DNA from: an uncultured Muribaculaceae bacterium
GTDB lineage: Bacteria > Bacillota_I > Bacilli_A > RF39 > UBA660
DNA: 59,130 nt
Assembly: GCA_964551965.1 (NCBI GenBank)
Contig: CAZKFB010000003.1
Span: forward strand, 1-59,130
Direction: 5' to 3'
Below, piece by piece: positions 1,583 through 25,435 of this stretch. A program made the position numbers and the translations under genes. Numbering within the stretch: position 1 is the first letter of the stretch; each line of letters begins with the position of its first letter. The notes under the pieces were generated by a model that saw nothing but the letters and a program-made list of their open reading frames with translations, searched no databases and had not been told where the DNA came from.

Positions 1583-1702
1583 ATGGACAATGTATTAGAT
1601 GAACTAGAATTACTTGAAGAAATAGATGACATTTTATTATCATTGGATGAAAACAATGATGATGATTCACAAGAGAGTGAGGAAGATAACGATGGACAGT
1701 AG
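1583..1702 (+). CDS. 39-aa very acidic small protein (MDNVLDELELLEEIDDILLSLDENNDDDSQESEEDNDGQ), not in ORF track
   Basis: TATAAT at 1565, AGGAG RBS at 1571, ATG 1583, TAG 1700-1702 overlapping the next start. Confidence 0.6.
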   Translation: MDNVLDELELLEEIDDILLSLDENNDDDSQESEEDNDGQ

Positions 1703-3167: not shown

Positions 3168-3268
3168 AAAGATATTTTAATATCTTTTTTTCTTACTTAT
3201 TTTTATAAAAGATGTTATAATATAGATGTATTTGTAATATTTTACATAAAAGGTGAGAGGGTGTAATA

Positions 3269-3493
3269 ATGGCAAAAAAGAATGTTCATGCAGAGAAAGA
3301 TATTAGTGTTTTAGAGTTAGACCCTAAAGTTAATAAAATATTAAAAGAAAACAATATTAATACAGTTGGAGATTTATGGGTTTTAAATAAGAAAAAGCTT
3401 AAAGAAATAGGTATTGCAGATTCTGATATTAAGTTTATATCAATAAAACTTCAATTATTGGGATTAGACTTGAACAAAAAGATATATAATTAA
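3269..3493 (+). CDS. Stand-alone RNA polymerase alpha C-terminal-domain-like protein (74 aa)
   Basis: ISVLELDPKVNKILKENNINTVGDL matches the alphaCTD pattern I-x-x-L-x-L-x-x-R-x-x-N-x-L-x-x-x-x-I-x-T-x-x-D-L; ends LGLDL. Confidence 0.7.
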   Translation: MAKKNVHAEKDISVLELDPKVNKILKENNINTVGDLWVLNKKKLKEIGIADSDIKFISIKLQLLGLDLNKKIYN

Positions 3494-3585
3494 AGACAAG
3501 TAAGTGTCTTTTTTTATTATTTTAATAATTTAACTCGATTTTTATGTTATAATCATGATAGTAGGTAGGTATAGGAGGTATACGT

Positions 3586-6314: not shown

Positions 6315-6344
6315 AAAATCTTAAGTTAATCTTAAGATTTTTTT
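6314..6344. terminator. Bidirectional intrinsic terminator
   Basis: aaaaatcttaag/cttaagattttt inverted repeat between convergent genes. Confidence 0.7.
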
Positions 6345-6795
6345 ATTTTATATGATATCCATTTTCATTTAAACCAAGATTTTTAAGTGTTCTTAATTTT
6401 TCTTCAATGGAATATGTTGTTATTTCTGGTATTATTCTTTTTATTTTTTCACTATTGGCAAAATTAATTATCATTTCAACAACAAAGTCTGACGATTGAA
6501 GATAGTCTTCATCTTTTTCATTAATAGTTCTTAATTTAGTTAGATAACCATTAATATAATTTGACCAATAATATGCATTTCCTTTAACATATACTACTCC
6601 ATATACATCTTGATTGTTTAATAGGAAATAGATTGAATTATTTACATCATATTCTTGATCTTCATCTTTAGAAGTCAATATATCAATATTTTCTTCAATA
6701 AATTTTAATGCATAATATTCTTCTATTCCGGAATTTATTAAATTTTCTAATAATCTTTTAAATTGTTTGTATTCATTTACTTCTTGTAACTCCAT
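6343..6795 (-). CDS. Hypothetical protein (150 aa) overlapping the 3' end of the HipA-like kinase; candidate antitoxin/partner
   Basis: ATG at 6795 preceded by GGAGG (track start 6819 less likely); 23-nt overlap with kinase. Confidence 0.7.
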   Translation of the reverse strand: MELQEVNEYKQFKRLLENLINSGIEEYYALKFIEENIDILTSKDEDQEYDVNNSIYFLLNNQDVYGVVYVKGNAYYWSNYINGYLTKLRTINEKDEDYLQSSDFVVEMIINFANSEKIKRIIPEITTYSIEEKLRTLKNLGLNENGYHIK

Positions 6796-7921
6796 CTTGC
6801 TTCCTCCTGTATGTTTCAATAATGCTTTGTAAGATTTCTAAATGATTATCAAATAATGTTAATATATAATTAAATGTAGTGCTATCCATTTCCATATAAT
6901 TTTCTGCTTCAGCTTGTCTTATTAATTTTTCAATTAAATTGGAAGATACGGAAGATATCATTTGAATAGCTATTTCGTTGTCTTCTTTATCGGAAACTCT
7001 TAAATAATGTTCAAGAACTTCAGGTATTTTTTTCTTGATTTTTTTCATTGGATCTATCGAGTCTTCCGTATCGACAACTAATGTTGGAAAAGCACGATAT
7101 AGGATGTCTTTTCGATTTTCTTCGGGATCTAATCCTCTAATTAGAGCATCTTTATAATATGTCATCATATTTCTATTAAATTCCATTATATGTTCTTCCA
7201 TATTTGGGTAGTTTAAACCAAAAGATGTGGAATTATCGAAAAGTGGGGAATATCTAACATTCTTGTTTGCTATAATACCCCAATTGTTAGGATGTCTATC
7301 ATATTGCATAGTTATTATATCAAATATAAGATTTTTTCTTAAACCTTCAATTATTCTTTCTTTATCTGTTCTTTCAATTTCATTAAAGTTAAATACGATT
7401 GATTGAATACAATCTAAGTTATTTAAATAATTAAACAGGTATCTTTTTCGATCATAGGCTTTAAGCTTTAAGAAATCGTCAGGAATATCATATAGATATC
7501 GGAATAACTTATTTTTTATCAATATCTCTTTCTTATTCTTATAGGGATATTGATTCATGAATTCTTGAAATAATTCGGCTCCTAGAACTAGTTTTTCTTT
7601 TCCTTTAATAATTGATTTAGTAACTACTCCTAATTGCCCATTAAAAGATGCTATTCGATATTCAGCGTGAGGTATACCTAAGTATTCTGCTAAATAAGAA
7701 GATAGGATTTCGCCCCATACATTTATCTTTGCATCTTTTAAAGGTTTAAATAAGTATCTCTCTCCCTCATAGTTAAACCACATTAGGGCGTCGACTCCAT
7801 TACCTTCAAGTTCAACAAAGTCTTTTTGCAGTAATTCTTTCATATCCCCATTGAATTCATAATTGTAGGCATCTTTTAATACATTTTCAATACTCAGTAA
7901 CTCTTTATATTCTTTAAACAT
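6773..7921 (-). CDS. HipA/CtkA-like protein kinase (HipA C-terminal domain family)
   Basis: YLFK, WGEILSSYLAEYLGIPHAEY, DRHPNNWG and SPLFDNS motifs. Confidence 0.85.
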   Translation of the reverse strand: MFKEYKELLSIENVLKDAYNYEFNGDMKELLQKDFVELEGNGVDALMWFNYEGERYLFKPLKDAKINVWGEILSSYLAEYLGIPHAEYRIASFNGQLGVVTKSIIKGKEKLVLGAELFQEFMNQYPYKNKKEILIKNKLFRYLYDIPDDFLKLKAYDRKRYLFNYLNNLDCIQSIVFNFNEIERTDKERIIEGLRKNLIFDIITMQYDRHPNNWGIIANKNVRYSPLFDNSTSFGLNYPNMEEHIMEFNRNMMTYYKDALIRGLDPEENRKDILYRAFPTLVVDTEDSIDPMKKIKKKIPEVLEHYLRVSDKEDNEIAIQMISSVSSNLIEKLIRQAEAENYMEMDSTTFNYILTLFDNHLEILQSIIETYRRKQDGVTRSK

Positions 7922-8440: not shown

Positions 8441-9064
8441 ATGCGTACAGAAATTAAAGATTTTAAAAGGGAAGAATTGTTTCATCATTATAATAGTAGA
8501 GCTAATGCTTTTTCTTTTGTAACTACTAATATTGATATTACGAATCTATATAAATTAGGTAAATTAAAAGATACTCAATATGGTGTAATATCTTATTATA
8601 TTAGTAAGGTAGTAAATACTTTAGATACTTTTAAAATGCGCTATGAAGATGGAAAATTTATTTATTATGATGTAATTCATCCAAATTTTACCGAAAAGTT
8701 AGATGATGATTTAATTGGCTTCTTTGATATTGATTATGTTGAAGATTTAGATCTATTCATCAAGAACTATAAAGATAGATTAAATAAGTTTAAAACTACT
8801 AGGGAAAGTTCTTGTGTTCATGAACAAGATGCTTTTTGGCAATCTTGTCAGCCTTGGTATTCTTTTACTTCTTGCGTTCCCCCATTTGATAATAGTATAA
8901 CTATTCCTCAATTTATATGGGATAAATTTAGATTTGAGGGTGATCGTGTATTCATGAATTTAATGGTTATGACTCATCATGGCTTTGTCGATGGTTATCA
9001 AATCGGCCTATTCATAAATAGATTTCAAGAAGAGATAAATAATATTAAAATTAATGAAGAATAA
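8441..9064 (+). CDS. CatA-like O-acetyltransferase (chloramphenicol acetyltransferase family)
   Basis: 207 aa; catalytic HHGFVDG motif, QPWYSFTS and IPQFIWDK segments typical of type A CAT. Confidence 0.85.
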   Translation: MRTEIKDFKREELFHHYNSRANAFSFVTTNIDITNLYKLGKLKDTQYGVISYYISKVVNTLDTFKMRYEDGKFIYYDVIHPNFTEKLDDDLIGFFDIDYVEDLDLFIKNYKDRLNKFKTTRESSCVHEQDAFWQSCQPWYSFTSCVPPFDNSITIPQFIWDKFRFEGDRVFMNLMVMTHHGFVDGYQIGLFINRFQEEINNIKINEE

Positions 9065-9120
9065 TATATTTATTCTTCTTTTTTTTATGTTATAATGATT
9101 ATTGTAGGAGAGTTTGAAGT

Positions 9121-10863
9121 ATGATAAAAGAATATTTTAAATTTATTAAAGAGTATTTAAGTTTAGCAGAAATCAAGAAATTATATTTAGTAATAAATAT
9201 GATTACTGCTTTTTTCTATAAATTATTTGAACTCTTATTACCTTTATTTGCATCACTTATTATTAAGTATTTAACAGTAAATGATGTAGAAATGACATAT
9301 TTTTATTTAATATTATTTGTTGTAGATTATTTACTTTACTATATATCCTTATATGCTAATTATAAAGTATATGGTTATAATATTAGTTATTGTTATGATA
9401 AATTGACTAGTAAGGTATTTAATAAGTTATTAAGTGTCGATGGTAATTTTTCTCGTATGTTTTCTAAGGGAAGAATAATGAATACGATTAATGGGGATAT
9501 TATCACGGTTGGTGATATGAATGATGAGATATGTGAATTCTTACTTGGTGCTTTTCAAGTAATTATGGTTCTAATAATAGTAGCGGTTAATAATGTCTTT
9601 GTTGCGCTTATTTTAGTTGTTTTTACATTCTTCTATATAGCATTCCGAAATAATGCTGATAGATTAATTGATATCTATTATAGTAAAAGTATAAGTGATG
9701 ATGATCGATATAGTACACTTTTAACTCAAATAGTATCAGGATTACAAGAGATTAAGACGTTTAATATGTTAGATAAATTAAAGATTAAACTTAATAATAT
9801 TCAAAAGAATTTTACTAAGCACTATGGAATAAAGAGACATTATTATACATTGAGAGATAATGATTCTAAGTTTATTACTTATGGATTTAGATTCTTACTA
9901 TATCTATTATTAGTTAGTTTACTTGCTTTAGGTTATATAGATATAGCATTCTTAGTACTTGTTATTTCTTATCATGAGAATTTAGTTGATTATGTATCTT
10001 ATTTCATTGATTCTACGACTGCTATTCGTGAGGGTAATATATCAGTTAGAAGAATAAATGATATATTAAATTATAAGTCGGAGAAAATAGTATTTGGTAA
10101 TTATGATACGAAAGATATATTTGGATCTATTGAATTTAAAGATGTTACATTAAAGATAAAAAAAGATACGATATTAGATAATGTAAGTTTTAAAATCAAC
10201 CATAATGAAGTCGTTGCTATTGTTGGGGAACCGGGGGCTGGTAAGAGTATGTTATTTAATGTCTTACTTAGACAATTTAAACCTACTTCCGGTCTTGTTA
10301 CTTTAGATAATATCGATATATTTGAATATGACAATGGAACTTATACATCTAGTATTGGAGTTATTAATCAGAAACCTTTTATATTTAATATGAGTATAAG
10401 AAAGAATTTAGATTTTGTTTGTAAAGATAAAAATAAACAAATAGAAGCTTGTAAGACTGCTGGTATTCATGATTTTATTAGCAGTTTACCTAAAGGATAT
10501 AATACTATTTTAAGAGAGAATGGAAGTAATATTTCTGGTGGGCAAAAGCAAATGATTAGTATTGCTAGAACACTTCTTACTGAGGCAGAAATATTATTAC
10601 TTGATGATATTACAACTTCATTAGATCCCGATACAGCAAAACTTGTACCTAATTTAATAAGTAAGATTAGAGATGATCATACAATTATTATGATAACAAA
10701 GAAACCTGAACTTATGAAGGAAGCGGATCGTATAATTGTTCTTGATAAGGGTAAAGTAGTTGATGTTGGAACCCATAAAGAATTAATTGAGAGAAATGAA
10801 ATCTATCAAAACTTACAATCACGTAAGTCACCAAGTAGAATTGGGGTGTTTGACAATGATTAA
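9121..10863 (+). CDS. ABC exporter, fused permease/ATPase, with degenerate catalytic residues
   Basis: TM N-half; Walker A GEPGAGKS, ISGGQ, Walker B LLLDD (no Glu), switch ITKK (no His). Confidence 0.9.
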   Translation: MIKEYFKFIKEYLSLAEIKKLYLVINMITAFFYKLFELLLPLFASLIIKYLTVNDVEMTYFYLILFVVDYLLYYISLYANYKVYGYNISYCYDKLTSKVFNKLLSVDGNFSRMFSKGRIMNTINGDIITVGDMNDEICEFLLGAFQVIMVLIIVAVNNVFVALILVVFTFFYIAFRNNADRLIDIYYSKSISDDDRYSTLLTQIVSGLQEIKTFNMLDKLKIKLNNIQKNFTKHYGIKRHYYTLRDNDSKFITYGFRFLLYLLLVSLLALGYIDIAFLVLVISYHENLVDYVSYFIDSTTAIREGNISVRRINDILNYKSEKIVFGNYDTKDIFGSIEFKDVTLKIKKDTILDNVSFKINHNEVVAIVGEPGAGKSMLFNVLLRQFKPTSGLVTLDNIDIFEYDNGTYTSSIGVINQKPFIFNMSIRKNLDFVCKDKNKQIEACKTAGIHDFISSLPKGYNTILRENGSNISGGQKQMISIARTLLTEAEILLLDDITTSLDPDTAKLVPNLISKIRDDHTIIMITKKPELMKEADRIIVLDKGKVVDVGTHKELIERNEIYQNLQSRKSPSRIGVFDND

Positions 10864-12663: not shown

Positions 12664-13587
12664 ATGAAATATAATTGGGCGAAGGTCCCTAGTGTACCTG
12701 CAGTTTTTAGAATATTAAAGAAAGAAATTAGATTTGAAGATCAAAGATTATCAAAAACTTTTTTCGATGCTTTAGAAGATTTCTTCTATTATGGAACTCT
12801 TTTGGGATATATTAAAAATACTAATTTTAAAAGAGTATTATCTCAAGTATTAAAGATTAAGAAAGTTGGATATCTTCTTGATGTATTTAATGGCAAGAAA
12901 TCAATGAATGTTAATGATAAAACAAGAATTGTATTATCTAAAGATTTAACTGATTCAGAACTTAAATACTTTATGTTAAAAGAAATAATTACTAATGTTT
13001 CTTCAATTTCTTTAATGACTACTAGAAATATTGTGAAAGATCATTTATTAAGTAAAGGTATTTATGGAGAAGAAACCAGTTATGAAGATAGATATCTAGA
13101 AAAAGGATTCAGACTTATCGAAGATGGTATTATTTATGATATGACCGAAAGCATTAATTATGCTAGTAGAAAAGAACATCGACCAATGAAAACTAAAAAG
13201 TTTGAAAAACATGTATTTGGTAGATCAACTAAGTTCTTATCTAATTTTACTTATCATCCAGTTTTCCAAGAATTAACAACTATGGTTGGTAGGAGAATTA
13301 TACCTAATAGTAATACTTTAACTGATGAACAAGTATTAAAACAATTGGGAAGCGATACTTTAAGTGAAAGATTTACTGATAAATTATTTATTAAATTAAG
13401 TAGTCTATATGGTGACGATGTTTATGATATTATTGGCAAATTAGGAATTATCTATAAAAGAGAAACTGATGAATATGGAGAAAACTTTATTAAAGATAAT
13501 TATTTAAGAGTAGTTCATGCTAAGAAGGCATATAAAGATCTTTATACTTATGAATCAGAAAAAAGACCAATGAGTAAGGCATGTTAG
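12664..13587 (+). CDS. Hypothetical protein (307 aa), possibly degenerate zincin-like
   Basis: AAGGGG RBS; LKEIIT followed later by IEDG resembles HExxH...E spacing without the histidines (weak). Confidence 0.7.
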   Translation: MKYNWAKVPSVPAVFRILKKEIRFEDQRLSKTFFDALEDFFYYGTLLGYIKNTNFKRVLSQVLKIKKVGYLLDVFNGKKSMNVNDKTRIVLSKDLTDSELKYFMLKEIITNVSSISLMTTRNIVKDHLLSKGIYGEETSYEDRYLEKGFRLIEDGIIYDMTESINYASRKEHRPMKTKKFEKHVFGRSTKFLSNFTYHPVFQELTTMVGRRIIPNSNTLTDEQVLKQLGSDTLSERFTDKLFIKLSSLYGDDVYDIIGKLGIIYKRETDEYGENFIKDNYLRVVHAKKAYKDLYTYESEKRPMSKAC

Positions 13588-14669
13588 CTATGACAGACGA
13601 AAGATTAAGAAAAATACTAGGGAATTTGCCAACGGAAAAATATTATCCAATAAAACGTTTTTTAGGTATGAATGCCGTAGCTGCATTTTCTCTTTCTATT
13701 ATTAATTCCATTCCTATAATTGATTATTCTCTTATGCTACTATATGTAATGAACTGTATGGGATTTACTTATATGAAACAATCTCGAGGAATTGATTTTA
13801 CGAAAAGTTATATTGATTTAGAAGAAGACTATAATTTATTCTTAAGTAATTATAGTAATCTTATGAATACTTTAGATATGAAATCTCTTGCTAGTCTATG
13901 TGAATCATTTTACTATTTATATGATAAAGGTTATTTATCAATAGATGGAACTTTTAATAATGAAAAGGAATCTTTTTTTGAAGGAAGAAGATTTCAATTA
14001 GCCAATATCTTTAATGGATGTGGACTATGTAGACATAAAGCAAATTCTTTAAAGGATATATTAAATTATTGTGGATATCCAACAGCATCTATTCCGATTT
14101 ATACAAGAAGATATGAAAACTATACTCAAGAAGATAAGGAAAGTATTAGAGAGTACTTAGATAAGGCATTTGAAGATATTGAGAAAGATGAGGCTTTAAG
14201 AACTTTTGTCGTCGATGCATTCTTAAATGTTGAAGTATTAACTCACCAATTTGTTGTCAATCAACAAAGAAATGATGAAAAGTCTAAGAGAAAAGAGAAA
14301 ATAGCAAGAAAGTATGGAAATCATTTAATAATATTAACTAGTGATGGAAGTAAAAGAATTACTTATGATCCAACAGATAATTTATTCTATCAATTTAAAG
14401 ATAAAGATAGTTTAGATATTATTAATGAATATGGTATTAGATCAGAAAGTAAGTTTAGATTGATTAATCATGCTAATACTCCATCAGAAGAAAAGATATT
14501 TTGGAATAATTTAAAGTTAGAACCTAAGAATCTAGAAGGCCTTAGAGATGCGCAAATGGAAGCTGAAAAAAGATTAGATGATAATTTAGATATAATTGAA
14601 AGATTCCAAAAAGATAATATACCTCTAATGAGAACTTTAAGAGATAAAGCATATAAGTTAATTGTGTAG
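13581..14669 (+). CDS. Transglutaminase-like (Cys-His-Asp) family protein with N-terminal hydrophobic segment
   Basis: GLCRHKA, NHLIIL and YDPT motifs in triad order. Confidence 0.65.
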   Translation: MLAMTDERLRKILGNLPTEKYYPIKRFLGMNAVAAFSLSIINSIPIIDYSLMLLYVMNCMGFTYMKQSRGIDFTKSYIDLEEDYNLFLSNYSNLMNTLDMKSLASLCESFYYLYDKGYLSIDGTFNNEKESFFEGRRFQLANIFNGCGLCRHKANSLKDILNYCGYPTASIPIYTRRYENYTQEDKESIREYLDKAFEDIEKDEALRTFVVDAFLNVEVLTHQFVVNQQRNDEKSKRKEKIARKYGNHLIILTSDGSKRITYDPTDNLFYQFKDKDSLDIINEYGIRSESKFRLINHANTPSEEKIFWNNLKLEPKNLEGLRDAQMEAEKRLDDNLDIIERFQKDNIPLMRTLRDKAYKLIV

Positions 14670-14677
14670 GTGATATT

Positions 14678-15148
14678 ATGAAAAAGATAGAAGCTCAAAT
14701 GATAGCTCCTGAGAAATCTAAATTATTACTTGAATATATTGGACAGTTTATGTCATATGATGAAGTTACTGGTAAAATATTAATTGATTATGATAAAGAT
14801 CCAGAAACAAGACAAAATATGTGTTATATGGAAATAATGTTAGATGATGGATTTGAAAGACATTTTAAAACGGATATTACTTTAGATCAAAGCGATGTCT
14901 TAAGTGAACAAATACTTACAGATATTGCTTGTATGTATGCAAATGATGATGAGGTTAGTATAAGTGGCTACTATTCAATTAATTCTATGCATAGTTCAAT
15001 GCATGGTATTGAAATAAAGAATAATAAGGGAAGTCGTATTCTAGTAGACTTTTTATGTCGAGGGATGAACTTTGATAAAGTAGTTGAAAGCTATTCTAAT
15101 AAGATAATAGAAGAACAAAGTAGAAATAAGGGGATTAGTAATATTTAA
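14678..15148 (+). CDS. Hypothetical protein (156 aa)
   Basis: AGGTGA RBS; no motif. Confidence 0.75.
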   Translation: MKKIEAQMIAPEKSKLLLEYIGQFMSYDEVTGKILIDYDKDPETRQNMCYMEIMLDDGFERHFKTDITLDQSDVLSEQILTDIACMYANDDEVSISGYYSINSMHSSMHGIEIKNNKGSRILVDFLCRGMNFDKVVESYSNKIIEEQSRNKGISNI

Positions 15149-15210
15149 TAAATATCTATTCCCTTTTTTATTTTGTTTTTGTATAATGAACTTAGAAAAG
15201 AGTGATTATT

Positions 15211-16104
15211 ATGGAATACTATATTGATTTAGGTTCTTCAACAATTAAAGTATATAGTTACTTAGATAGTTTAAATCTATTAGAAGAACATTCGATTTAT
15301 TTTAAAAATAATTTTGATTCAGAAAATGGAATAAGTGCTGTTAATCGTCAAGAATTAATAGATTATTTTGAACATTTAAAATCTAAATATGATATGCACT
15401 ATGAAAATACCCATATCTTTGTTACAGGTATATTTAGAAACTTAAGTTATGCGAGAAAATGTGAGTTAGTTAGATTATTTAATGATACTTTTGATTTACA
15501 TTTTAATATTATTAGTCATGGAATTGAAGCTTATTATTTAGGTAAAGCTATGGAAAATAATTATGATGGCAAAAAAGTGTTAATTATTAATATGGGTGGA
15601 AAAACAACAGAACTTGTAACTTTTGCTAAAGAAGAAATTGTAAAAGTAGATAAGTTGGAAATTGGTGTTGCTGATATATTAAATAATTTTTTAAATATTA
15701 ATGATAAATCTAGTAAAGATAAAGTAGAAACTATTGTTGATTTTGTTAATGAAAGAATTAAAGATGTTAAGTTTGATCAAGACTATGATGCTGCAATATT
15801 TACGGGTGGAGAAGAAAGATTTGAATTATTAACTAAATTTAACTTAGTAGAAAATACTTTATTCAATGATGGAATTCATAAATATATGGTTTCTTTAGAT
15901 GATTATGTCAAAGGAACTGAGAAAGTCTTCTATGATATAAGTTTAGAAGAGTTGTATAAATTGATGCCAGGAAATCCTAAATGGATGGATGGAGCAAGAG
16001 CTGGAGCTATTATTCCATTAAGTATATTCTATAAAGCAAATATTAAATGGGTTATACCTTCTGATTTAAACTTAATTAATGGTGTTATTAATGATAATAA
16101 GTAA
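15211..16104 (+). CDS. Ppx/GppA-like phosphatase (ASKHA fold)
   Basis: YIDLGSSTIK, ISHGIEA and INMGGKTTE motifs; track start GTG 15202. Confidence 0.7.
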   Translation: MEYYIDLGSSTIKVYSYLDSLNLLEEHSIYFKNNFDSENGISAVNRQELIDYFEHLKSKYDMHYENTHIFVTGIFRNLSYARKCELVRLFNDTFDLHFNIISHGIEAYYLGKAMENNYDGKKVLIINMGGKTTELVTFAKEEIVKVDKLEIGVADILNNFLNINDKSSKDKVETIVDFVNERIKDVKFDQDYDAAIFTGGEERFELLTKFNLVENTLFNDGIHKYMVSLDDYVKGTEKVFYDISLEELYKLMPGNPKWMDGARAGAIIPLSIFYKANIKWVIPSDLNLINGVINDNK

Positions 16105-16174: not shown

Positions 16175-16873
16175 ATGTTAGAATTTATAAAGAATTGTTT
16201 TAAAAACATAAGTGTTAAATGTAATTATCAAGAGTTGGCGGGAGTTAAAAAAGTTATAGCTTTTGCTTTTTGCGCTATTCTTATTGCTCTTGTCTTAGGT
16301 ATTGCTGCTGCTATGATAGTTGCAATGCTTGCATTAGCTATTTGTATTATACCTATAGGTTTAGTAATTAATGGTGTTCAATTATTAGTTCCATTAATTA
16401 AACAATCATTGAAAGTTGCTAAAATGAAAAAGAAATTAAAAAAACAAAAGCGTAGACAATCACAAGAACTTGTTGAACTTTATACTAACAATATGGAGAG
16501 TATTAATAATACTATAGGAGCATTAGAAAATAGTTCTACTATTGTTGAAGATGAATTAGGTAGAGAAGTAGAAACACAAGAATTAGTTGATATTAGTCTA
16601 GAAGACCTTGTATGTTATATTCAATATATAGCTACAATTAATCCTGGCGATGCAGAAATGTTAATGGGGCTTCATTCTCGTCTAGATATGCTAAAATCAA
16701 TTATGGATAGAACTATAAGTCATGAAGAACGTGAAAAACTTGAAAGTGAATACTATAGTATAATGTTCAGTGTTCAAGAAAAACTTATTGAATATGTTGA
16801 TGGCATAAATAGTATAAATGATACTTTTGTTAAAGGAACAAAAAAAAGAAGATTATTTAATAGGGGATTATAA
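16175..16873 (+). CDS. Hypothetical membrane protein (232 aa)
   Basis: Long hydrophobic stretch near N-terminus, charged helical C-domain. Confidence 0.75.
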   Translation: MLEFIKNCFKNISVKCNYQELAGVKKVIAFAFCAILIALVLGIAAAMIVAMLALAICIIPIGLVINGVQLLVPLIKQSLKVAKMKKKLKKQKRRQSQELVELYTNNMESINNTIGALENSSTIVEDELGREVETQELVDISLEDLVCYIQYIATINPGDAEMLMGLHSRLDMLKSIMDRTISHEEREKLESEYYSIMFSVQEKLIEYVDGINSINDTFVKGTKKRRLFNRGL

Positions 16874-17584
16874 TCTTCTTTTTATTTCTAATAATTTATT
16901 TACTTCATAAGTTGGTATTAAATTTCCTGCTTCTTTATTTTGTGGGTTATACCAAATAGTATCAAAACCATTATTAATTCCGCTAGCAATATCTGTAGTG
17001 AGGGAATCTCCGATAAATATAACATTACTTTTGGGTTCTTTTAAATCGTTAAATAGAGCATCCCAGAAATTGTGATCAGGTTTAGAAAAACCTAAAACTT
17101 CTGAACAATATATACTTGTAAAATATTTTTTAAAATCAACTTTGTTTAATTTATTTGTTGCGGCATTATATGGGCCATTAGTTGCAATAGCTAGACGGTA
17201 TTTATCGTATAGATATTCAAGAATCTCTCTAGCGCCTTCAATACTTTCAATATCAACACCTAAATTGCTACAATAAAGATTATTAATAGTTATAGCATGA
17301 TCAAAATCTTGAAGATGGAAGAATTCAAAAAATCTATTTGATCTTAAATAAGTTCTTAATTCTTCAACGTTCTCTTGAATATAAAGATGCTCAGGGACTA
17401 TCATTGTTCTATGTTCCCATCGGTACCAATATTCATAATCAAACTGTAAAAAAGCATAAAATAATTCATCTTGATAGGGAATACCTAAATACTCAGAAAT
17501 AACTTTAAATGCATAATTAGAAGCTTTAGTATTATCTATTAAAGTATCATCTAAATCAAGTATTATCGTGCTATATTTTTTCAT
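16868..17584 (-). CDS. YjjG-like HAD-superfamily nucleotidase
   Basis: ILDLDDTL, ATNG, KPD, IGDSLTTDIASG, TIWYNP. Confidence 0.9.
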   Translation of the reverse strand: MKKYSTIILDLDDTLIDNTKASNYAFKVISEYLGIPYQDELFYAFLQFDYEYWYRWEHRTMIVPEHLYIQENVEELRTYLRSNRFFEFFHLQDFDHAITINNLYCSNLGVDIESIEGAREILEYLYDKYRLAIATNGPYNAATNKLNKVDFKKYFTSIYCSEVLGFSKPDHNFWDALFNDLKEPKSNVIFIGDSLTTDIASGINNGFDTIWYNPQNKEAGNLIPTYEVNKLLEIKRRL

Positions 17585-17684
17585 GATATCCCTCCTTGAT
17601 TTGTTATTATATCATATTTACACTGATATGCTAGAAAATAAATACAAAACTAAATTATTTGATATAATTATAGTAGGTGATTGT

Positions 17685-18779
17685 ATGATACAAGAGTTTT
17701 TACAAGGATTAAAAAGTAAGTACCAATATGATGATAATATATTAAAAGCAATTGAGATAACAATTAATTTAATGATTAAAAAGTATGGGAATGAAGCATT
17801 GAATGATATCTTAGAATTATTTAATAGTATTCCGATTTTTCCTTTTGTTGGATTAAATCAGAGTATTGTTAATGAAAAAATGAAAGAGTGTTTTGAAGGA
17901 AATAATCCTCATATTATTGAAGATGAAGAAGAGAATATATATGGTACTAATGCCGTAGGATCTGTATATTGTTATAATCCAATATTTAATGAAGATATGG
18001 AAGTAGTAGGAGAATCCAATTTTATAATTGTTGATGATAAAAAGGGTACAACTCAAGAAGCGGATTATTTTAATACTTTTGGTACAACAATAAATATTCC
18101 TTATTTCTTACATGAAGTTAATCATGCTTATGGTATGCAAAAGAAGAAATATGTTAATATAGATAATCAAATATTATGTAAACATGGATTATTTACTTCT
18201 GTTATTGATTATAAAAAGGAAGGAGATAAATATCATATAAGTACAACTAGTGGAAAAGATATTGTATTTGAAGAGATCATTAATCAAATGATAACCCAAG
18301 ATATGTTATGTGATTTCTTTAATGTTAATTCGTATAATGAAGTTAAACCAATACTTGATAGTATTAAATATGTTCCGATGGAATATGATTCTCTTCTAGT
18401 ATTTATTGGTAGAGAACTTAGTTTTGCAATGGGCGAGCAAGCAATTATGGATTTTAGAAGAGAAAATGATGAATCAGTCATTGAAGAATTTAATAATATG
18501 GCTGGACAAAGTGATATAGCAATTGAATATTTAGATGGAATAAAACCTCTTGAATATTTTGTTAACAAAACATATGATTTATTTCAACTTATTATTAACA
18601 AGTATAAATATGGCATTGAAAAATATGGTGAATTATCAGCAGAACTTATGTTAGATTCTTTAGCCCCCGTATATGCTTATGCAGATAAAAAGAATAATAC
18701 AGTTACTTTAGAAAAATATAAACAACAAAGAGAAAAAGTAATGAGTCCTTATAATAATCCGGATAAAAAATTAGACTAG
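17685..18779 (+). CDS. Putative zincin metallopeptidase-like protein (~364 aa)
   Basis: LHEVNH (HExxH) plus downstream FEEIIN; ATG 17685 has AGGTG RBS and TGATATAAT at 17660; track start 17568 overlaps the opposite gene. Confidence 0.6.
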   Translation: MIQEFLQGLKSKYQYDDNILKAIEITINLMIKKYGNEALNDILELFNSIPIFPFVGLNQSIVNEKMKECFEGNNPHIIEDEEENIYGTNAVGSVYCYNPIFNEDMEVVGESNFIIVDDKKGTTQEADYFNTFGTTINIPYFLHEVNHAYGMQKKKYVNIDNQILCKHGLFTSVIDYKKEGDKYHISTTSGKDIVFEEIINQMITQDMLCDFFNVNSYNEVKPILDSIKYVPMEYDSLLVFIGRELSFAMGEQAIMDFRRENDESVIEEFNNMAGQSDIAIEYLDGIKPLEYFVNKTYDLFQLIINKYKYGIEKYGELSAELMLDSLAPVYAYADKKNNTVTLEKYKQQREKVMSPYNNPDKKLD

Positions 18780-19108: not shown

Positions 19109-19171
19109 ACACATTAATCTTTTTCTACTAATTAGTATGTTATAATTTTAAATAGTAGGAGTGTGATGTTT

Positions 19172-20149
19172 ATGGCTGTAATTGAAGTAAAGAATTTATC
19201 AAAAAAGTTTAAAGTAAAAATAAAGGAAAAAGGTTTAAAAGGTAGTTTAAAAACTATAATTAAACCAAAATATAAGACAATAGAAGCTGTAAAAGATATT
19301 AGTTTTGAAGTAGAAAAAGGAGAAATTGTTGCCTTTATTGGACCTAATGGAGCAGGTAAAAGTACAACAATTAAGATGATGACAAGTATATTGAATCCTG
19401 ATTCAGGTTCTATTAAAGTACTAGGATTTGATCCAATGAAAGATCGTAAGAAATTATCATACGCAATTGGAACAGTATTTGGTCAAAAAGAACAATTATG
19501 GACGCATTTAACTCCATACGATAACTTTAAGTTCTTTGGAGCTATTTATGATATTCCATCCTATGCTGTTGATAAAAAGATAGAGGAATTTAAAGCATTG
19601 TTTGAATTGGAAGAATTTATAGATACTCCAGTTCGTAATCTATCTTTAGGTCAAAGAATTAGATGTGAAATTGTTGCATCTTTAATTCATGAACCTAAAG
19701 TAATGTTCTTAGATGAACCAACGATTGGTCTTGATCCGGTAGTTAAAGAAAATATTAGAACTTTAATTAAACGAATGAATAAGGAATATAAGACAACAAT
19801 AATATTAACGAGTCACGATGTATCTGACATTGAAAAACTATGTAAACGAGTAATCATTATTAATAATGGACAATTAGTAATGGATGATTCAATGGAGAAT
19901 TTAAAATATCATTATTTAAACAAAAAGATTGTTGATGCTAAGATGAGAGAAAAAGTTAATCTAGATGATGAAGATGGTATAACAATTCTTAAGGATAAAG
20001 GATATAACATTAAAATAGAAGTTGATATTACTAAGAGAAGTGTAACTGATGCGTTAAAACTATTGAATCCTGATAATATAGTTGATATTAATATATCTAA
20101 TACTCCACTAGAGGATATTATTAGTAGTATTTATAAAAATAAGGAGTAA
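19172..20149 (+). CDS. ABC transporter ATP-binding subunit (DrrA-like)
   Basis: GPNGAGKS, LSLGQ, FLDEPTIGLD, TSH; start may be 19163 or 19166. Confidence 0.92.
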   Translation: MAVIEVKNLSKKFKVKIKEKGLKGSLKTIIKPKYKTIEAVKDISFEVEKGEIVAFIGPNGAGKSTTIKMMTSILNPDSGSIKVLGFDPMKDRKKLSYAIGTVFGQKEQLWTHLTPYDNFKFFGAIYDIPSYAVDKKIEEFKALFELEEFIDTPVRNLSLGQRIRCEIVASLIHEPKVMFLDEPTIGLDPVVKENIRTLIKRMNKEYKTTIILTSHDVSDIEKLCKRVIIINNGQLVMDDSMENLKYHYLNKKIVDAKMREKVNLDDEDGITILKDKGYNIKIEVDITKRSVTDALKLLNPDNIVDINISNTPLEDIISSIYKNKE

Positions 20150-20150
20150 C

Positions 20151-20942
20151 ATGAAAAAGTATTTATTTATAATAAAAACCGAAATAATGTCTAATTTCCA
20201 ATATATATGGAATGTTTTATTTGGATTTGTTGGTTATGCAATTATATTATTTATTCTATTTAACTTATGGAAATATCTCTATAGTGATCCTAGTCAATTA
20301 ATAAATGGCTATAACATGAATCAAATGACATGGTATGTAATTATTACTGAGATTCTTTGGAGTACTTTAGGTGGTAGAAAATTATGTCGTAAGATAAGTA
20401 ATGATGTTAAAAGTGGTAATATAGCTTACAACATAAATAAACCTTATGATTATATTGGTTATTCTCTATCTACTCATTTAGGAGATATGATAGTAAAAGG
20501 AATTATATTTACTATTTTAGGAATGCTTCTTGGATATATATTTTTAGGATCTTTTCCAAATTTAAATATAATTAGTATATTAATACTTATCTTAGTAGCA
20601 ATTTTAGCATCAATTATTAGTTGTTTATTAATTATTATAATTGGACTATTTTCTTTCTTTATTGAAGATTCAGGACCATTCTATTGGTTATATAGTAAAT
20701 TTATTCTTATTTTAGGAACGATATTTCCTATTGAATACTTTCCTAAAGTAATGCAAGGATTTTTGAATTATAGTCCAGTTTATGTAGTTAGTTATGGACC
20801 TGCTAAATTGTTTGTTGATTTTTCTTATTCAAGAGCTTTATCAATAATAATTGCCCAAGTAGTTTATATTATTGTTGTATCTTTAATTGCAAACATTATA
20901 TATAGAAAGGGAGTGAAGAGAATAAATGTTAACGGTGGTTAA
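20151..20942 (+). CDS. ABC-2 type permease
   Basis: Six hydrophobic segments, G-I-A-x-x-I-x-KP loop, operonic with the ATPase. Confidence 0.85.
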   Translation: MKKYLFIIKTEIMSNFQYIWNVLFGFVGYAIILFILFNLWKYLYSDPSQLINGYNMNQMTWYVIITEILWSTLGGRKLCRKISNDVKSGNIAYNINKPYDYIGYSLSTHLGDMIVKGIIFTILGMLLGYIFLGSFPNLNIISILILILVAILASIISCLLIIIIGLFSFFIEDSGPFYWLYSKFILILGTIFPIEYFPKVMQGFLNYSPVYVVSYGPAKLFVDFSYSRALSIIIAQVVYIIVVSLIANIIYRKGVKRINVNGG

Positions 20943-21720
20943 AAATCAAATAAAAGTTAATTTATTAACACTTAAATATGCTATTATGAGAGAAATGATT
21001 AATAAAATCACATTCTTTTCTAATATTATATTTATGATATTGAATAATTCATGTATGATTGTTCAATGGGTTGTTCTTTTTTCCATTAAAAGTGATATGG
21101 GGGGATATACTTTTCGAGATGTCCTTCTATTATGGGGACTTGCAGCAGGGACATATGGAGTATCACATTTTTTCTTTAAGAGATGTTTTAATCTATCAGA
21201 AACTATTAATAATGGTTCTTTAGACAATTATATTATTCAACCTAAAAATATCTTATTATCAGCTATTACTTCGGATGTTGAAGTGTCAGCCTTAGGTGAT
21301 ATGGTATTTGCTATAATAGTCTATTTTATATATGGATTTACTATTAGAGGATTTATTCTATTCATCTTGTTTTCTATAACAGGAGGTTTAATGATAACAG
21401 CTATTTCTGTTATCTTGAATAGTTTGAGCTTTTGGTTTAATAATGCCGATATGATTGCTGAATCAGGTAATGGTTTAATGACTAACTTTGCAACATATCC
21501 GGATGGAATATTTAAGGGAATTACTAAATGGTTACTATTTACAATTATTCCGGTTGGAATAGTTAATTATATACCAATAAAAGCAATAATAGCTTTTAAT
21601 CCAACATTGTTATTAATCAATGTTGTTGGTTGTATAATATTGGTTACTTTAGCATTCTTAGTATTCTATTTAGGTTTAAAAAGATATTCATCTACTAACT
21701 TGATGAATGCAAGAATTTAA
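20926..21720 (+). CDS. ABC-2 type permease (second subunit)
   Basis: Six hydrophobic segments, GSLDNYIIQP and YPDGIF motifs. Confidence 0.85.
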   Translation: MLTVVKNQIKVNLLTLKYAIMREMINKITFFSNIIFMILNNSCMIVQWVVLFSIKSDMGGYTFRDVLLLWGLAAGTYGVSHFFFKRCFNLSETINNGSLDNYIIQPKNILLSAITSDVEVSALGDMVFAIIVYFIYGFTIRGFILFILFSITGGLMITAISVILNSLSFWFNNADMIAESGNGLMTNFATYPDGIFKGITKWLLFTIIPVGIVNYIPIKAIIAFNPTLLLINVVGCIILVTLAFLVFYLGLKRYSSTNLMNARI

Positions 21721-22391: not shown

Positions 22392-22481
22392 ACTAATATC
22401 CTCACTTTTAATATTATAGCAAATTTTTAATATTTATAGTAAAATAGATAATTATATTTAATTAATGTTAGGGGAGTTTAT

Positions 22482-23855
22482 ATGTTAAGAAATGTAATTT
22501 CCGTAATTGATGGAGCTGCCGGTTCTTGTGGTAAAGCTAAAGTAATTGGTGAGATAGCTACTTTAGAAGGAATTAATTTAGGTGCTAGTGTAACCAATTG
22601 TATGCCTAATGCTGGTCATTCTTTTGTTGATAATAGAGGTAAAAAAATAGTATTTCGCAATATTCCCGTATCTTCAGTTAACCCTAAAACAGAATTATTT
22701 ATTGGTCCAGGATCAGCAATTGATATGGAAGTATTTAAAGATGAATATATGCGAGTTCAGAAAATTGTTGGAAATCGAAAAATATATATTCATGAGATGA
22801 CTCCCTTAATAGAAGAAAGACATAAAGCATATGAAAGGGAGCATATAAAAAGCGGTTCGACTTTTAAAGGATGTGGAGCTGTTACTCAAGAGAAAGTTAT
22901 TCGTGATGAAAAGTTAAGATTCTTTAAAGATTTTAAAAATGCTATAGTTTTATCCAATGATGATTGGTTAGATTGTCTTTATAAACATTTAGATAATGAA
23001 TCTGAATATGTTATGATGGAAGGATCTCAGGGTTGTGACTTAGATTTAAACCATAGTGGTAATTATCCTTATGTAACGAGTAGAAATGTATCAACAACTC
23101 AGTTGCTTGCCGATTCAGGAATTTCTGCAGAAAGATTGTTACAAACAATTTTAGTAATTAGACCTTTTCCAATTAGAATAAGCAATATTACTAAAACAGG
23201 TAAATATATCTATACTGGTTCTTATGGTACGGGGGAAGAATTAAAATGGACACAAGTAAATTTAGCTAGTATGTATGGTGGTTATCCATTTAAAGGCGAT
23301 GTTGATTTATATTCATCTAAATTAGCATGTGATATTGTTTCAAGACTTATTGATGAATGTCCGGAAGTATATTTAAAACAAGTATTTAAAAATAATTATA
23401 AAAATATTGTGGTAGAAAACATTACTCTTTTAGAAGCCTTAGAAATTGAGAGATTAGTTCATAAATCAAGAGGAGAAAGAGAGTACCAAACCGAGTTAAT
23501 AGATTTACCAACATTAGATTCTGAATTACCGGAAAACACGATAATAGATCAATCAGAAGAGACAACAGTTACAAAGATGGAGAGAAGAATATTTGATCTC
23601 GATATAAATAAATTAAAAAATAATTGCCGTATTAATACACCATCTAGTTTATATCTTAACTTTTTTGAACATTTAGGATACGAATTTATAAATGAAAAAG
23701 GTTTATTTGATGATATATATTTTAATAGGTATTTAAGAGAATATTTAAATTGGTTAGAGTATGAAACGGGCATTGATATATCAGCTTTAGGTACGGGACA
23801 AATTAATGGAAGTAGGATTGTAAAACAAAGAATATTGAGAGATATAATAAAGTAA
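22482..23855 (+). CDS. Adenylosuccinate synthetase-family enzyme with PurZ/PurZ0-like signatures and ~100-aa insertion
   Basis: GSCGK (Ser15 in place of the Asp of PurA GDEGK), MPNAGH, GSTFKG, EGSQG, YPYVTSR, RPFPIR, TTVTKMERR, LNF, LGTG. Confidence 0.85.
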   Translation: MLRNVISVIDGAAGSCGKAKVIGEIATLEGINLGASVTNCMPNAGHSFVDNRGKKIVFRNIPVSSVNPKTELFIGPGSAIDMEVFKDEYMRVQKIVGNRKIYIHEMTPLIEERHKAYEREHIKSGSTFKGCGAVTQEKVIRDEKLRFFKDFKNAIVLSNDDWLDCLYKHLDNESEYVMMEGSQGCDLDLNHSGNYPYVTSRNVSTTQLLADSGISAERLLQTILVIRPFPIRISNITKTGKYIYTGSYGTGEELKWTQVNLASMYGGYPFKGDVDLYSSKLACDIVSRLIDECPEVYLKQVFKNNYKNIVVENITLLEALEIERLVHKSRGEREYQTELIDLPTLDSELPENTIIDQSEETTVTKMERRIFDLDINKLKNNCRINTPSSLYLNFFEHLGYEFINEKGLFDDIYFNRYLREYLNWLEYETGIDISALGTGQINGSRIVKQRILRDIIK

Positions 23856-24670: not shown

Positions 24671-25435
24671 ATGAATAAAAAAGAGATATTAAAGAATGTC
24701 GATATTTTATATGCTATGTGGAAAAAAGGAGTTCTTGGAGGAGAAGTAATGCCGGAAGATGCAAATCCGCATCTAGAAAAATCTTCTTTAGAAAATTATC
24801 TATATTTTACTTTACCGATGGCTTTAAATTATCAGAGAAATTCTTATACTTTATGGGAAAGTGCAAATAAAACTTATAATGATGAAGAGACAAGATTTGT
24901 CTTTGATCCAAAAGAGTGCTTAAATAGGAGTTTTGAAGAGGTTCAATATGCTTTAACGAAATATAAAGTTGCTTTGCAGCGTCAAAAACAAACAGAGATA
25001 TGGTTAACTCTTTGTAAGACTTTTGTTGAATTATTTGATGGGGATATCAGGAATCTTTTTATAGAGTTCGATAATGATGTCGATAAAATTAGGGATTTTA
25101 TTCAAAATATAAATAAAAAGAAGTTTCCATATTTATCAGGAACTAAGATTTGTAATTATTGGCTATTTGTAATTTGGCAATATACAGGAATTCAATATAA
25201 AAATATTGAAAATCTAACAGTAGCTCCTGATACACATGTTATTAAATCTACTCATAGATTAGGTTTAATTAATGATTCAGAACTAGAAAGTTCAAAGGTT
25301 CAATCTATTGTAATTGAAAGATGGAATGAATTATTTGAAGGGACGAAGTATAAACCTATAGATATTCATACTCCATTATGGTTATGGAGTAGAAATGGGT
25401 TTATTGATTTAGATGAAAATATTCTAAATAAATAG
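24671..25435 (+). CDS. HhH-GPD superfamily DNA glycosylase-like protein
   Basis: HhH-like YLSGTKI with Lys and APDTHV with Asp; no Cys4 Fe-S motif. Confidence 0.55.
   Translation: MNKKEILKNVDILYAMWKKGVLGGEVMPEDANPHLEKSSLENYLYFTLPMALNYQRNSYTLWESANKTYNDEETRFVFDPKECLNRSFEEVQYALTKYKVALQRQKQTEIWLTLCKTFVELFDGDIRNLFIEFDNDVDKIRDFIQNINKKKFPYLSGTKICNYWLFVIWQYTGIQYKNIENLTVAPDTHVIKSTHRLGLINDSELESSKVQSIVIERWNELFEGTKYKPIDIHTPLWLWSRNGFIDLDENILNK

Follow-up and report, generated by a model that had tools for sequence, protein, structure and literature searches.

A cellular PurZ-type gene family with an inserted domain and a Ppx/GppA-like partner in gut Bacilli lacking recognizable PurA and PurB

What does a bacterial cell do with a gene of the PurZ type? 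The question is raised by a contig of an uncultured bacterium (CAZKFB010000003.1, assembly GCA_964551965.1; GTDB lineage RF39, UBA660), and the window analyzed here is this whole 59-kb contig (59,130 nucleotides). The open reading frame (ORF) at positions 22482-23855 of the forward strand begins with ATG and encodes a 457-amino-acid (aa) PurZ-like synthetase, a serine-type, short member of the PurA family. A sequence-only reading of the window had taken it for a domesticated PurZ-type enzyme on a bacterial chromosome, and both the ORF and all the motifs that were quoted from it are real and lie at the residues given there. Phage PurZ is the N6-succino-2-amino-2'-deoxyadenylate synthase, also known as DgsS, with which the making of the unusual DNA base 2-aminoadenine begins, and its structures are available from phiVC8 (6FKO, 6FM1 and 6TNH) and S-2L (7ODX).

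The literature searched treats PurZ and DNA containing 2-aminoadenine (Z) as belonging to phages alone. There, PurZ is described as a group of 147 phage and 4 archaeal sequences (PMC12884076), and natural dZ-DNA is said to be known from the genomes of phages only (PMC13128860). The literature searched on PurZ homologues outside phages and on PurA-like defense genes held nothing relevant. What is new here is a cellular PurZ-type family that is conserved, selected and mobile in at least 178 gut-bacterial species. The family comes with an insertion domain and a phosphohydrolase-like partner of its own, and its hosts, in which neither purA nor PurB was found, are cells unable to finish the known pathway. 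This pattern points to a new use of the chemistry, such as nucleotide-depleting immunity or pool control, or to a missing enzyme.

Identity and origin of the 457-aa protein

The protein carries the P-loop DGAAGSCGKAK (residues 10-20, encoded at 22509-22541 on the forward strand), followed by MPNAGH (41-46), VIRPFPIR (225-232), EELKW (252-256), the aspartate-loop equivalent TTVTKMERR (361-369, encoded at 23562-23588 on the forward strand), LNFFE (392-396) and LGTG (436-439). It was aligned with PurZ from phiVC8, Alteromonas ZP6, Acinetobacter vB_AbaSI_2 and Salmonella PMBT28, with PurZ0 from Gordonia Sapo, Arthrobacter Huntingdon and Microbacterium Goodman, and with PurA from E. coli and two related Bacilli. 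Against E. coli PurA (GTQWGDEGKGK and NEFGATTGRRRRTG), Ser15 occupies the position of Asp13. TTVTKMERR lines up with GATTGRRRR, which places Met366 at the Arg303 position, and the aspartate loop thus starts with Thr and has Met in place of Arg, as had been noted from the sequence. GSCGKA, TTVTKMERR and LNFFE stand where canonical PurA has GDEGKG, G-x-T-T-G-R-R-R-R and the GTP-binding (S/T)KxD. The GSEAKG-type P-loop and the ...RRVG loop of PurZ0 also differ from these motifs.

The profile searches rank the protein in the same way. The Pfam family PF00709 (Adenylsucc_synt) is matched weakly (E 2.4e-25, 89.6 bits). The best NCBIfam model is that of PurZ, NF038379 (E 4.3e-51, residues 7-262 aligned), with 173.9 bits, short of the curated family cut-off of 300. 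The archaeal-type PurA profile PRK04293 (150 bits) and the canonical purA profile TIGR00184 (94.7 bits against a cut-off of 395.55) rank lower. In a sequence search of the PDB, the best matches are the short PurA of Pyrococcus horikoshii (E 3e-27), S-2L PurZ, phiVC8 PurZ and PurZ0, and the alignments cover residues 7-234 and 357-440, leaving the roughly 120 residues in between unmatched. The 150 best 50%-cluster representatives from a library of 1.84 billion proteins all carry T-T-V-T and G-S (G-G in two), and the PurA P-loop Asp occurs in none of them. The 457-aa protein is therefore placed deep within the serine-type radiation.

The AlphaFold2 model of the protein has a predicted local distance difference test score (pLDDT) of 93.9 and a predicted template modeling score (pTM) of 0.92. 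When this model is searched with Foldseek, phiVC8 PurZ (6fko) comes out on top with a template modeling (TM) score of 0.86. P. horikoshii PurA scores 0.85-0.88, S-2L PurZ 0.82 and PurZ0 0.81, and the long bacterial and eukaryotic PurA structures score about 0.6-0.69. Motifs, hidden Markov model ranking, predicted fold and the tree described below agree that the protein is PurZ-type and not ordinary PurA, in line with the sequence-only reading.

Like phage PurZ, the protein has Ser for Asp13, a TTVTK loop without Arg303, a short archaeal-type architecture and the pocket residues for dGMP and ATP. Phage PurZ is also its best fold match and lies on the same side of the tree. Unlike the phage enzymes, to which it is only 30-33% identical, it has the P-loop GSCGK instead of GSTGK, an invariant Glu367 in its family, an SNxTxxGxxIYxGxYG segment and a helical insertion. 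Its gene is cellular, is unaccompanied by DatZ, MazZ or DpoZ, and occurs in hosts without PurB. The PurZ0 enzymes of Gordonia, Arthrobacter and Microbacterium phages (7VF6) also have a Ser-type P-loop, a TTVT loop and a short fold, but carry GSEAKG and ...RRVG and form a clade of their own. The archaeal short PurA (5K7X and 2D7U from P. horikoshii) offers the best PDB sequence match and a similarly compact fold, but retains GDEGKG, GTVTGRRRR and the GTP-binding Asp.

The predicted active site can be compared with that of S-2L PurZ, in which dGMP is contacted by G22, S23, N49, A50, S131, T132, R146, Q190, T205, R240 and V241, and ATP by N305, F306 and Q308 (PMC8342488). These residues map to G14, S15, N43, A44, S126, T127, R141, Q183, T199, R232 and I233, and to N393, F394 and E396, with Ile in place of V241. 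Conservation was counted over 65 family members. G14-S15, N43-A44, G125-S126-T127, Q183, R232-I233 and N393-F394 are invariant, and R141 and T199 are nearly so. Position 396 is Glu in the window protein and Gln, as in S-2L, in 60 of the 65. The P-loop stretch A13-G14-S15-C16-G17-K18, in which Cys16 follows Ser15, does not vary. Glu367, at the position of PurA Arg304, is invariant in the family, and Met366 is family-specific and conserved. The pocket is thus predicted to be of the ATP-using PurZ type. N393-F394-x-E396 matches N305-F306-x-Q308 of S-2L, and with this match and the placement on the PurZ side of the tree described below, the likeness to GTP-using PurZ0 that had been suggested from VIRPFPIR and LGTG is not supported.

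A family-specific insertion of about 120 aa (residues 236-356, encoded at 23187-23549 on the forward strand) separates the PIRIS strand from the aspartate loop. It is gapped against all PurZ, PurZ0 and PurA references. Modeled alone, it forms a helical bundle (pLDDT 89.8), for which Foldseek finds no fold match in the PDB (best E 2.4). The ratio of nonsynonymous to synonymous substitution rates (dN/dS) is about 0.40 in the insertion versus 0.16 in the core. This helical domain is a candidate for a regulatory role.

A PurA/PurZ/PurZ0 tree, which the sequence-only reading had called for, was built with IQ-TREE from 73 rows under LG+C20 and rooted on PurA. The cellular 457-aa family is monophyletic (support 100/99). 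Its sister group consists of two other insertion-bearing metagenomic sequences, followed by the shorter relatives P0123, P0126, P0128 and P0124, and the whole is nested with sequences from IMG/VR viral contigs (95/86 and 100/97). The cellular family and its viral relatives lie on the PurZ side (100/92), apart from the PurZ0 clade (100/99). Branching within ordinary PurA had been named as an outcome that would speak against a PurZ-type enzyme, and the split from PurA is supported at 100/100. The window protein stands outside the phiVC8/SH-Ab/S-2L-type clade of characterized PurZ, in its own 28-row clade within the Ser-type superclade. No member of the 457-aa family is found in IMG/VR viral contigs. 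The viral relatives are 33-40% identical and lie in phage replication modules, one of them with genes for an exonuclease, a single-stranded DNA-binding protein, a helicase and thymidylate synthase. The best GenBank phage match, from Bacillus phage vB_BpsS-140, is 36.5% identical. This topology fits the capture of a phage gene, with the insertion presumably gained afterwards. A congeneric genome (G011:C13, locus L019) carries a second PurZ-like type with the P-loop DGQAGSCGKGK, an N-terminal extension and an open frame of about 520 aa without the large insertion. This type groups with the viral-contig clade and may be prophage-borne.

Distribution, selection and purine metabolism of the hosts

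A scan of GTDB-species genomes found 178 genomes that encode a relative of the 457-aa protein. From these, 80 loci were kept (81 with the window), all from metagenome-assembled genomes of uncultured gut "Bacilli", "Tenericutes" or "Mollicutes", or genomes so labeled, with 53-83% identity. They include a complete circular chromosome of 1.5 Mb. The host genome of the window is 1.27 Mb in size, has 27% GC and is 81% complete. Within the genus, the PurZ-like gene is present in 14 of 22 genomes, and among 301 evenly sampled genomes of the order it occurs in 20 (~7%), from 15 of 127 genera.

Decay in relatives had also been named as a finding that would speak against a functional enzyme. The dN/dS of close pairs is 0.10-0.24, though three copies in the order sample (G293, G016 and G229) are decayed, with stop codons or as fragments. 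The gene is cellular, intact and under purifying selection, and together with its patchy distribution this makes it a selected but dispensable accessory gene. The decayed copies are what could be cited for a relic that came from a phage, has lost its catalytic activity and is drifting. Such a relic is very improbable, given these dN/dS values, pocket residues that are invariant or nearly so across 65 members from many species, a family found intact in no fewer than 178 species genomes and a predicted fold of high confidence.

The flanks of the 81 loci are highly diverse, and some consist of housekeeping genes (PFL, PrfA, TilS, FtsH and MetK). Mob_Pre relaxase and large serine recombinase genes adjoin the PurZ-like gene and the partner gene described below in 4-6 loci. 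Between the species of L046 and L057, of L030 and L034, and of other pairs, the PurZ-like genes differ by a dS of only 0.09-0.2, which suggests recent horizontal spread, with dS read on its own and not against housekeeping genes. From these sequence data, the family appears to be a cellular subfamily, so far undescribed, of PurZ-type purine-nucleotide:aspartate ligases that stems from phage PurZ-like genes and reached reduced-genome gut Bacilli as a mobile accessory gene.

A genome search for canonical purA and purB, another check put forward by the sequence-only reading, found neither: canonical purA is missing from the host genome and from the genus, and purB from the 81%-complete host genome. 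The fumarate-lyase superfamily (PF00206) is absent from all 37 genomes of the family and from one more genome of the order (38 in total), and from 18 of 20 further carriers of the PurZ-like gene, the complete chromosome included. The same search gave matches in all 14 control genomes and, among genomes from other families of the class, in 19 of 23. In phages, host PurB converts the PurZ product into dZMP (PMC8342488; bioRxiv 10.1101/2025.10.22.683976). Without PurA and PurB, the known routes to Z and to AMP are therefore unavailable in these hosts. Since PurB is missing, the PurZ-like gene probably serves a role that is so far undescribed. Of the domesticated PurZ-type enzyme that had been envisaged, the domestication is supported, with a cellular gene under purifying selection that nests among viral contigs, and the making of Z by the known route is not.

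As the sole PF00709 match in the host genome, the PurZ-like protein might be the cell's own highly diverged adenylosuccinate synthetase, which would join IMP and aspartate at the expense of GTP. Ser in place of the catalytic Asp13, the low TIGR00184 score and the split from PurA in the tree all argue against this. There is also no PurB to take the product, and the gene is missing from 8 of the 22 genus genomes and from most of the family. An ordinary PurA is hardly credible here.

The enzyme might instead feed Z, or a succinylated or otherwise hypermodified purine, into the DNA of the cell or of a mobile element, with a lyase or processing enzyme unrelated to PurB completing the route. The conserved PurZ-type pocket agrees with this, as does carriage on mobilizable elements, which could gain from restriction-resistant DNA. 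Genes resembling DNA glycosylases recur nearby, of the uracil-DNA glycosylase (UDG) type in 7 of 81 loci and of the HhH-GPD type in 3 of 81, and purZ, mazZ and datZ suffice for Z in the cellular DNA of E. coli (PMC8342488). Against it stand the absence of the whole fumarate-lyase superfamily from the 38 close relatives and the 18 further carriers, the lack of a conserved DatZ-like or DpoZ-like partner, with a Ppx-like gene as the only conserved one, and the report of natural dZ-DNA from phages alone (PMC13128860). On balance, this route to modified DNA is unlikely.

A survey of the host genome with E. coli queries found Adk, DeoA, DeoD, two RelA/SpoT homologue (RSH) proteins and NrdDG. GuaA, GuaB, GuaC, Hpt, Apt and Gmk were unmatched, a result that is indicative only, given the 81% completeness and sequence divergence. 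A host lacking PurA and PurB, with GuaA, GuaB and GuaC unmatched, could be a purine auxotroph in which the 6-phosphoryl-purine chemistry is kept and applied with another nucleophile (ammonia or an amine) or to another 6-oxopurine nucleotide, as a PurB-free salvage of aminopurines. The family-specific, conserved Met366 and Glu367 and the invariant Cys16 beside Ser15 are compatible with such a change. The T-T-V-T-K...R-R loop, on the other hand, is common to aspartate-using PurZ, an accessory gene, carried by roughly 7% of the genomes in the order and by 14 of 22 in the genus, is ill-suited to a core salvage step, and decayed copies occur. We give this alternative little weight.

The Ppx/GppA-like partner and possible roles of the pair

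Across the 81 loci, the sole recurrent neighbor is a gene for a Ppx/GppA-like protein of the ASKHA fold of about 298 aa. It lies immediately upstream on the same strand, with a gap of 12-33 nt, in 37 of 74 loci whose upstream sequence is long enough to tell. In the window, the corresponding gene (15202-16104, forward strand, 300 aa) lies 6.4 kb upstream of the PurZ-like gene and is orthologous to the adjacent partners elsewhere, as it belongs to the same BLAST family. This conserved partner, which emerged from the comparison of synteny in relatives, had been overlooked when the window was read from sequence alone. All 10 genus genomes with the Ppx-like orthologue also carry the PurZ-like gene. 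Among the 301 genomes of the order, 12 have both genes, 8 the PurZ-like gene only, 10 the Ppx-like gene only and 271 neither (odds ratio 40.7, p 7e-11). No PurZ remnant is found at the solo Ppx-like loci. The nearest relatives of the PurZ-like protein without the insertion (P0122, P0123, P0124, P0126 and P0127) show no Ppx-like partner, on contigs that are too short or uninformative.

The partner family has a median identity of 71%. The window protein scores 38 bits with PF02541 (cut-off 27; positions 43-278 of 285 aligned) and only 51 bits with TIGR03706 (cut-off 307; positions 5-296 of 300 aligned). RSH enzymes are present in the hosts, as is a housekeeping Ppx/GppA paralogue that is distinct from the partner and lies near an RSH-like gene, and an alarmone link of the partner, as would be expected of a GppA, is neither supported nor excluded by this. 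In one genome (G000:C27:5083-6555 and 8699-9571), the housekeeping paralogue is 27% identical to the accessory protein and has an RSH-like gene of 500 aa some 2 kb away, which suggests that this copy covers the alarmone-related role. Extra small genes with a RelA_SpoT domain, resembling small alarmone synthetases (150-230 aa), occur in G006, G007, G008, G010, G013, G014, G016 and G018. At the genus level, they are seen only alongside the Ppx-like/PurZ-like pair, are not adjacent to it and may reflect a subclade with larger genomes.

MazZ, DUF550 and DutZ-DUF5664 proteins supply PurZ and PurZ0 with dGMP from dGTP. The Ppx-like partner resembles them in its proposed role, as a putative phosphohydrolase encoded beside the ligase, but it has the ASKHA fold and the motif INMGGKTTE, whereas theirs is a MazG or Dut fold.

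We tentatively favor a reading in which the PurZ chemistry serves as a dead-end drain on guanine nucleotides within a mobile module for defense or competition. Because the PurZ-type pocket is conserved, the PurZ-like enzyme would phosphorylate (d)GMP at O6 with ATP and condense the activated nucleotide with aspartate, in the fashion of PurZ, into N6-succino-2-amino-(d)AMP. The Ppx/GppA-like partner would remove phosphates from (d)GTP or (d)GDP and so furnish the monophosphate. With no PurB-type lyase, the succino product would be barred from becoming Z or A nucleotides and would be a dead end. The pair would then drain the pool of guanine (deoxy)nucleotides irreversibly, and its most likely use would be as a mobile nucleotide-depletion module. 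Thin support for a defensive use comes from the accessory and mobile nature of the gene, from one mobilizable element (L006/L042) on which the pair is followed by the PADLOC candidates PDC-M04B and PDC-M04A and a Mokosh-like helicase, and from distant Ser-type relatives beside GajA and BilD genes on proteobacterial plasmids. The dGTPases and dCTP deaminases of anti-phage depletion offer a parallel in the proposed removal of (deoxy)nucleotides by an accessory, mobile gene. They differ from the pair in that they share no homology with it, no PADLOC model covers the pair, and the proposed reaction is conversion to a succino adduct instead of hydrolysis or deamination.

Several observations weigh against such a drain. 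Each member of the pair is found alone in about 40% of its carriers. Defense-gene neighbors occur in only 1 of the 81 family loci, many loci are bordered by housekeeping genes, and neither the PurZ-like nor the Ppx-like protein has a match in PADLOC-DB 2.0. The phosphate-2 motif of the partner is INMGGKTTE in 39 of 39 orthologues instead of DIGGGSTE, so that the metal-binding Asp has become Asn and a Gly has become Lys, with the Glu kept. With Asn at the metal-binding Asp, hydrolase activity of the partner is uncertain. An unregulated drain would damage the cell, and no trigger or regulator was identified. The catalytic role is deduced from sequence and model for every family member, and two invariant residues close to the sites for aspartate and phosphate, Glu367 and Cys16, may point to another nucleophile or an altered chemistry.

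A broader view covers both fates of the product. In it, PurB-less gut Bacilli and their mobilizable elements would use PurZ-type chemistry through a two-enzyme route of the Ppx/GppA-like protein and the insertion-bearing PurZ-like protein. The outcome would be either immunity by way of a dead-end succino-aminopurine from (d)GTP, or a PurB-independent entry of 2-aminoadenine or a succinylated purine into the DNA of the cell or mobile element. This view is possible, if doubtful.

The frequent occurrence of either gene on its own raises a further alternative. The PurZ-like and Ppx-like proteins may be independent house-cleaning or pool-balancing enzymes that act on non-canonical or surplus purine nucleotides, are loosely linked to further genes for nucleotide sanitizing and have no part in defense. 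Housekeeping flanks are common, a YjjG-type HAD nucleotidase is encoded in 4 loci, and UDG-like genes lie nearby. This does not sit well with the tight adjacency and strong co-occurrence of the two genes or with the movement of the pair on mobilizable elements, and no known substrate requires such sanitizing. There is a small chance that this explanation is the right one.

Ser-type relatives on proteobacterial plasmids adjoin genes for GajA of the Gabija system (607 bits) and BilD of the Bil system (550 bits). These relatives, from cultured Proteobacteria, are tractable entry points for work on the drain proposed here and on its alternatives. They are short, Ser-type PurA-like genes on the S. 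medicae plasmid pMl5 (L142, 4986-6026) and on an R. solanacearum megaplasmid (L143, 4440-6155), with the P-loops GGQFGSEGKGK and GGQYGSEGKGN, and are annotated merely as "adenylosuccinate synthetase". One of them lies 1.5 kb from BilD, with PemK/Phd and a UvrD-like helicase in the vicinity. The other carries a fused P-loop kinase-like domain at its N terminus and has a full-length GajA as its neighbor. In the tree, the two are placed on the basal/PurZ0 side, and their surroundings resemble defense islands.

Surroundings of the gene in the window

The PurZ-like gene is preceded by the Shine-Dalgarno sequence AGGGGAG (22470-22476, forward strand), which was read from the DNA and stands 5 nt ahead of the ATG. 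The contig encodes a two-component system, a HipA-like kinase, CAT, ABC transporters, FTHFS, CysRS, PrsA, LytR, sugar-nucleotide enzymes and tRNA-Gly, along with several ORFs without annotation. Pfam reveals no gene for a terminase, capsid, integrase or phage polymerase in the 59 kb, and the absence of phage context that the sequence-only reading had remarked on holds to that extent. A prophage or phage origin of the window locus was considered and rejected, with no phage genes recognized in the 59 kb and no member of the 457-aa family in IMG/VR.

An ABC-2 transporter operon (19163-21720) lies upstream of the PurZ-like gene and is itself accessory, occurring in 3 of 22 genus genomes. The stretch between ~12 and 30 kb thus has the look of a flexible region, with no recognizable mobility genes. 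For the same reason, a comparison with empty sites was set aside, as no clean empty site was available. Five packed ORFs of 307, 362, 156, 232 and 403 aa (12664-15148 and 16175-18779) flank the Ppx-like gene. They have no Pfam, NCBIfam or convincing PADLOC match and are common only to the sister species (L026).

Between the Ppx-like and PurZ-like genes, on the reverse strand (16868-17584), lies a gene for a HAD nucleotidase of the YjjG/PynA type (TIGR02254, 122.7 bits, below the cut-off), a type that acts on non-canonical pyrimidine nucleotides. Homologues are found near the PurZ-like gene in three other loci. Farther upstream, on the reverse strand (6343-7921), a HipA_C-domain kinase (a weak match, E 2.7e-7) is followed by an overlapping ORF of 158 aa. 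Nearby, at 1626-5775, are unannotated ORFs of 513 and 729 aa without a PADLOC match.

In seven of the 81 loci (L058 4281-4970, L075 11407-12063, L123 4189-4854 and four others), a family-4 UDG-like gene (PDB 4zbx and 1ui0; E 1e-7) is no more than about 11 genes away from the PurZ-like gene. In two loci it directly follows the PurZ-like gene, and in one it directly precedes a solo Ppx-like gene. In a count uncorrected for phylogeny, this suggests a recurrence above chance for a single-copy gene.

A module of the PurZ-like gene with an S-adenosylmethionine-dependent methyltransferase and an HhH-GPD-like protein was considered and rejected. These neighbors occur in 2-3 of 81 loci, namely in the window and the sister species, and an extended -10 promoter-like sequence, TGATATAAT, ahead of the methyltransferase gene also counts against such a module. 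The downstream methyltransferase and the weak HhH-GPD-like gene are local context only. The latter (24671-25435, forward strand) encodes a 254-aa protein that matches HhH-GPD only marginally (E 0.0099) and has no counterpart among PDB sequences. A homologue that is 78% identical to it lies two genes from the solo Ppx-like gene of locus L129.

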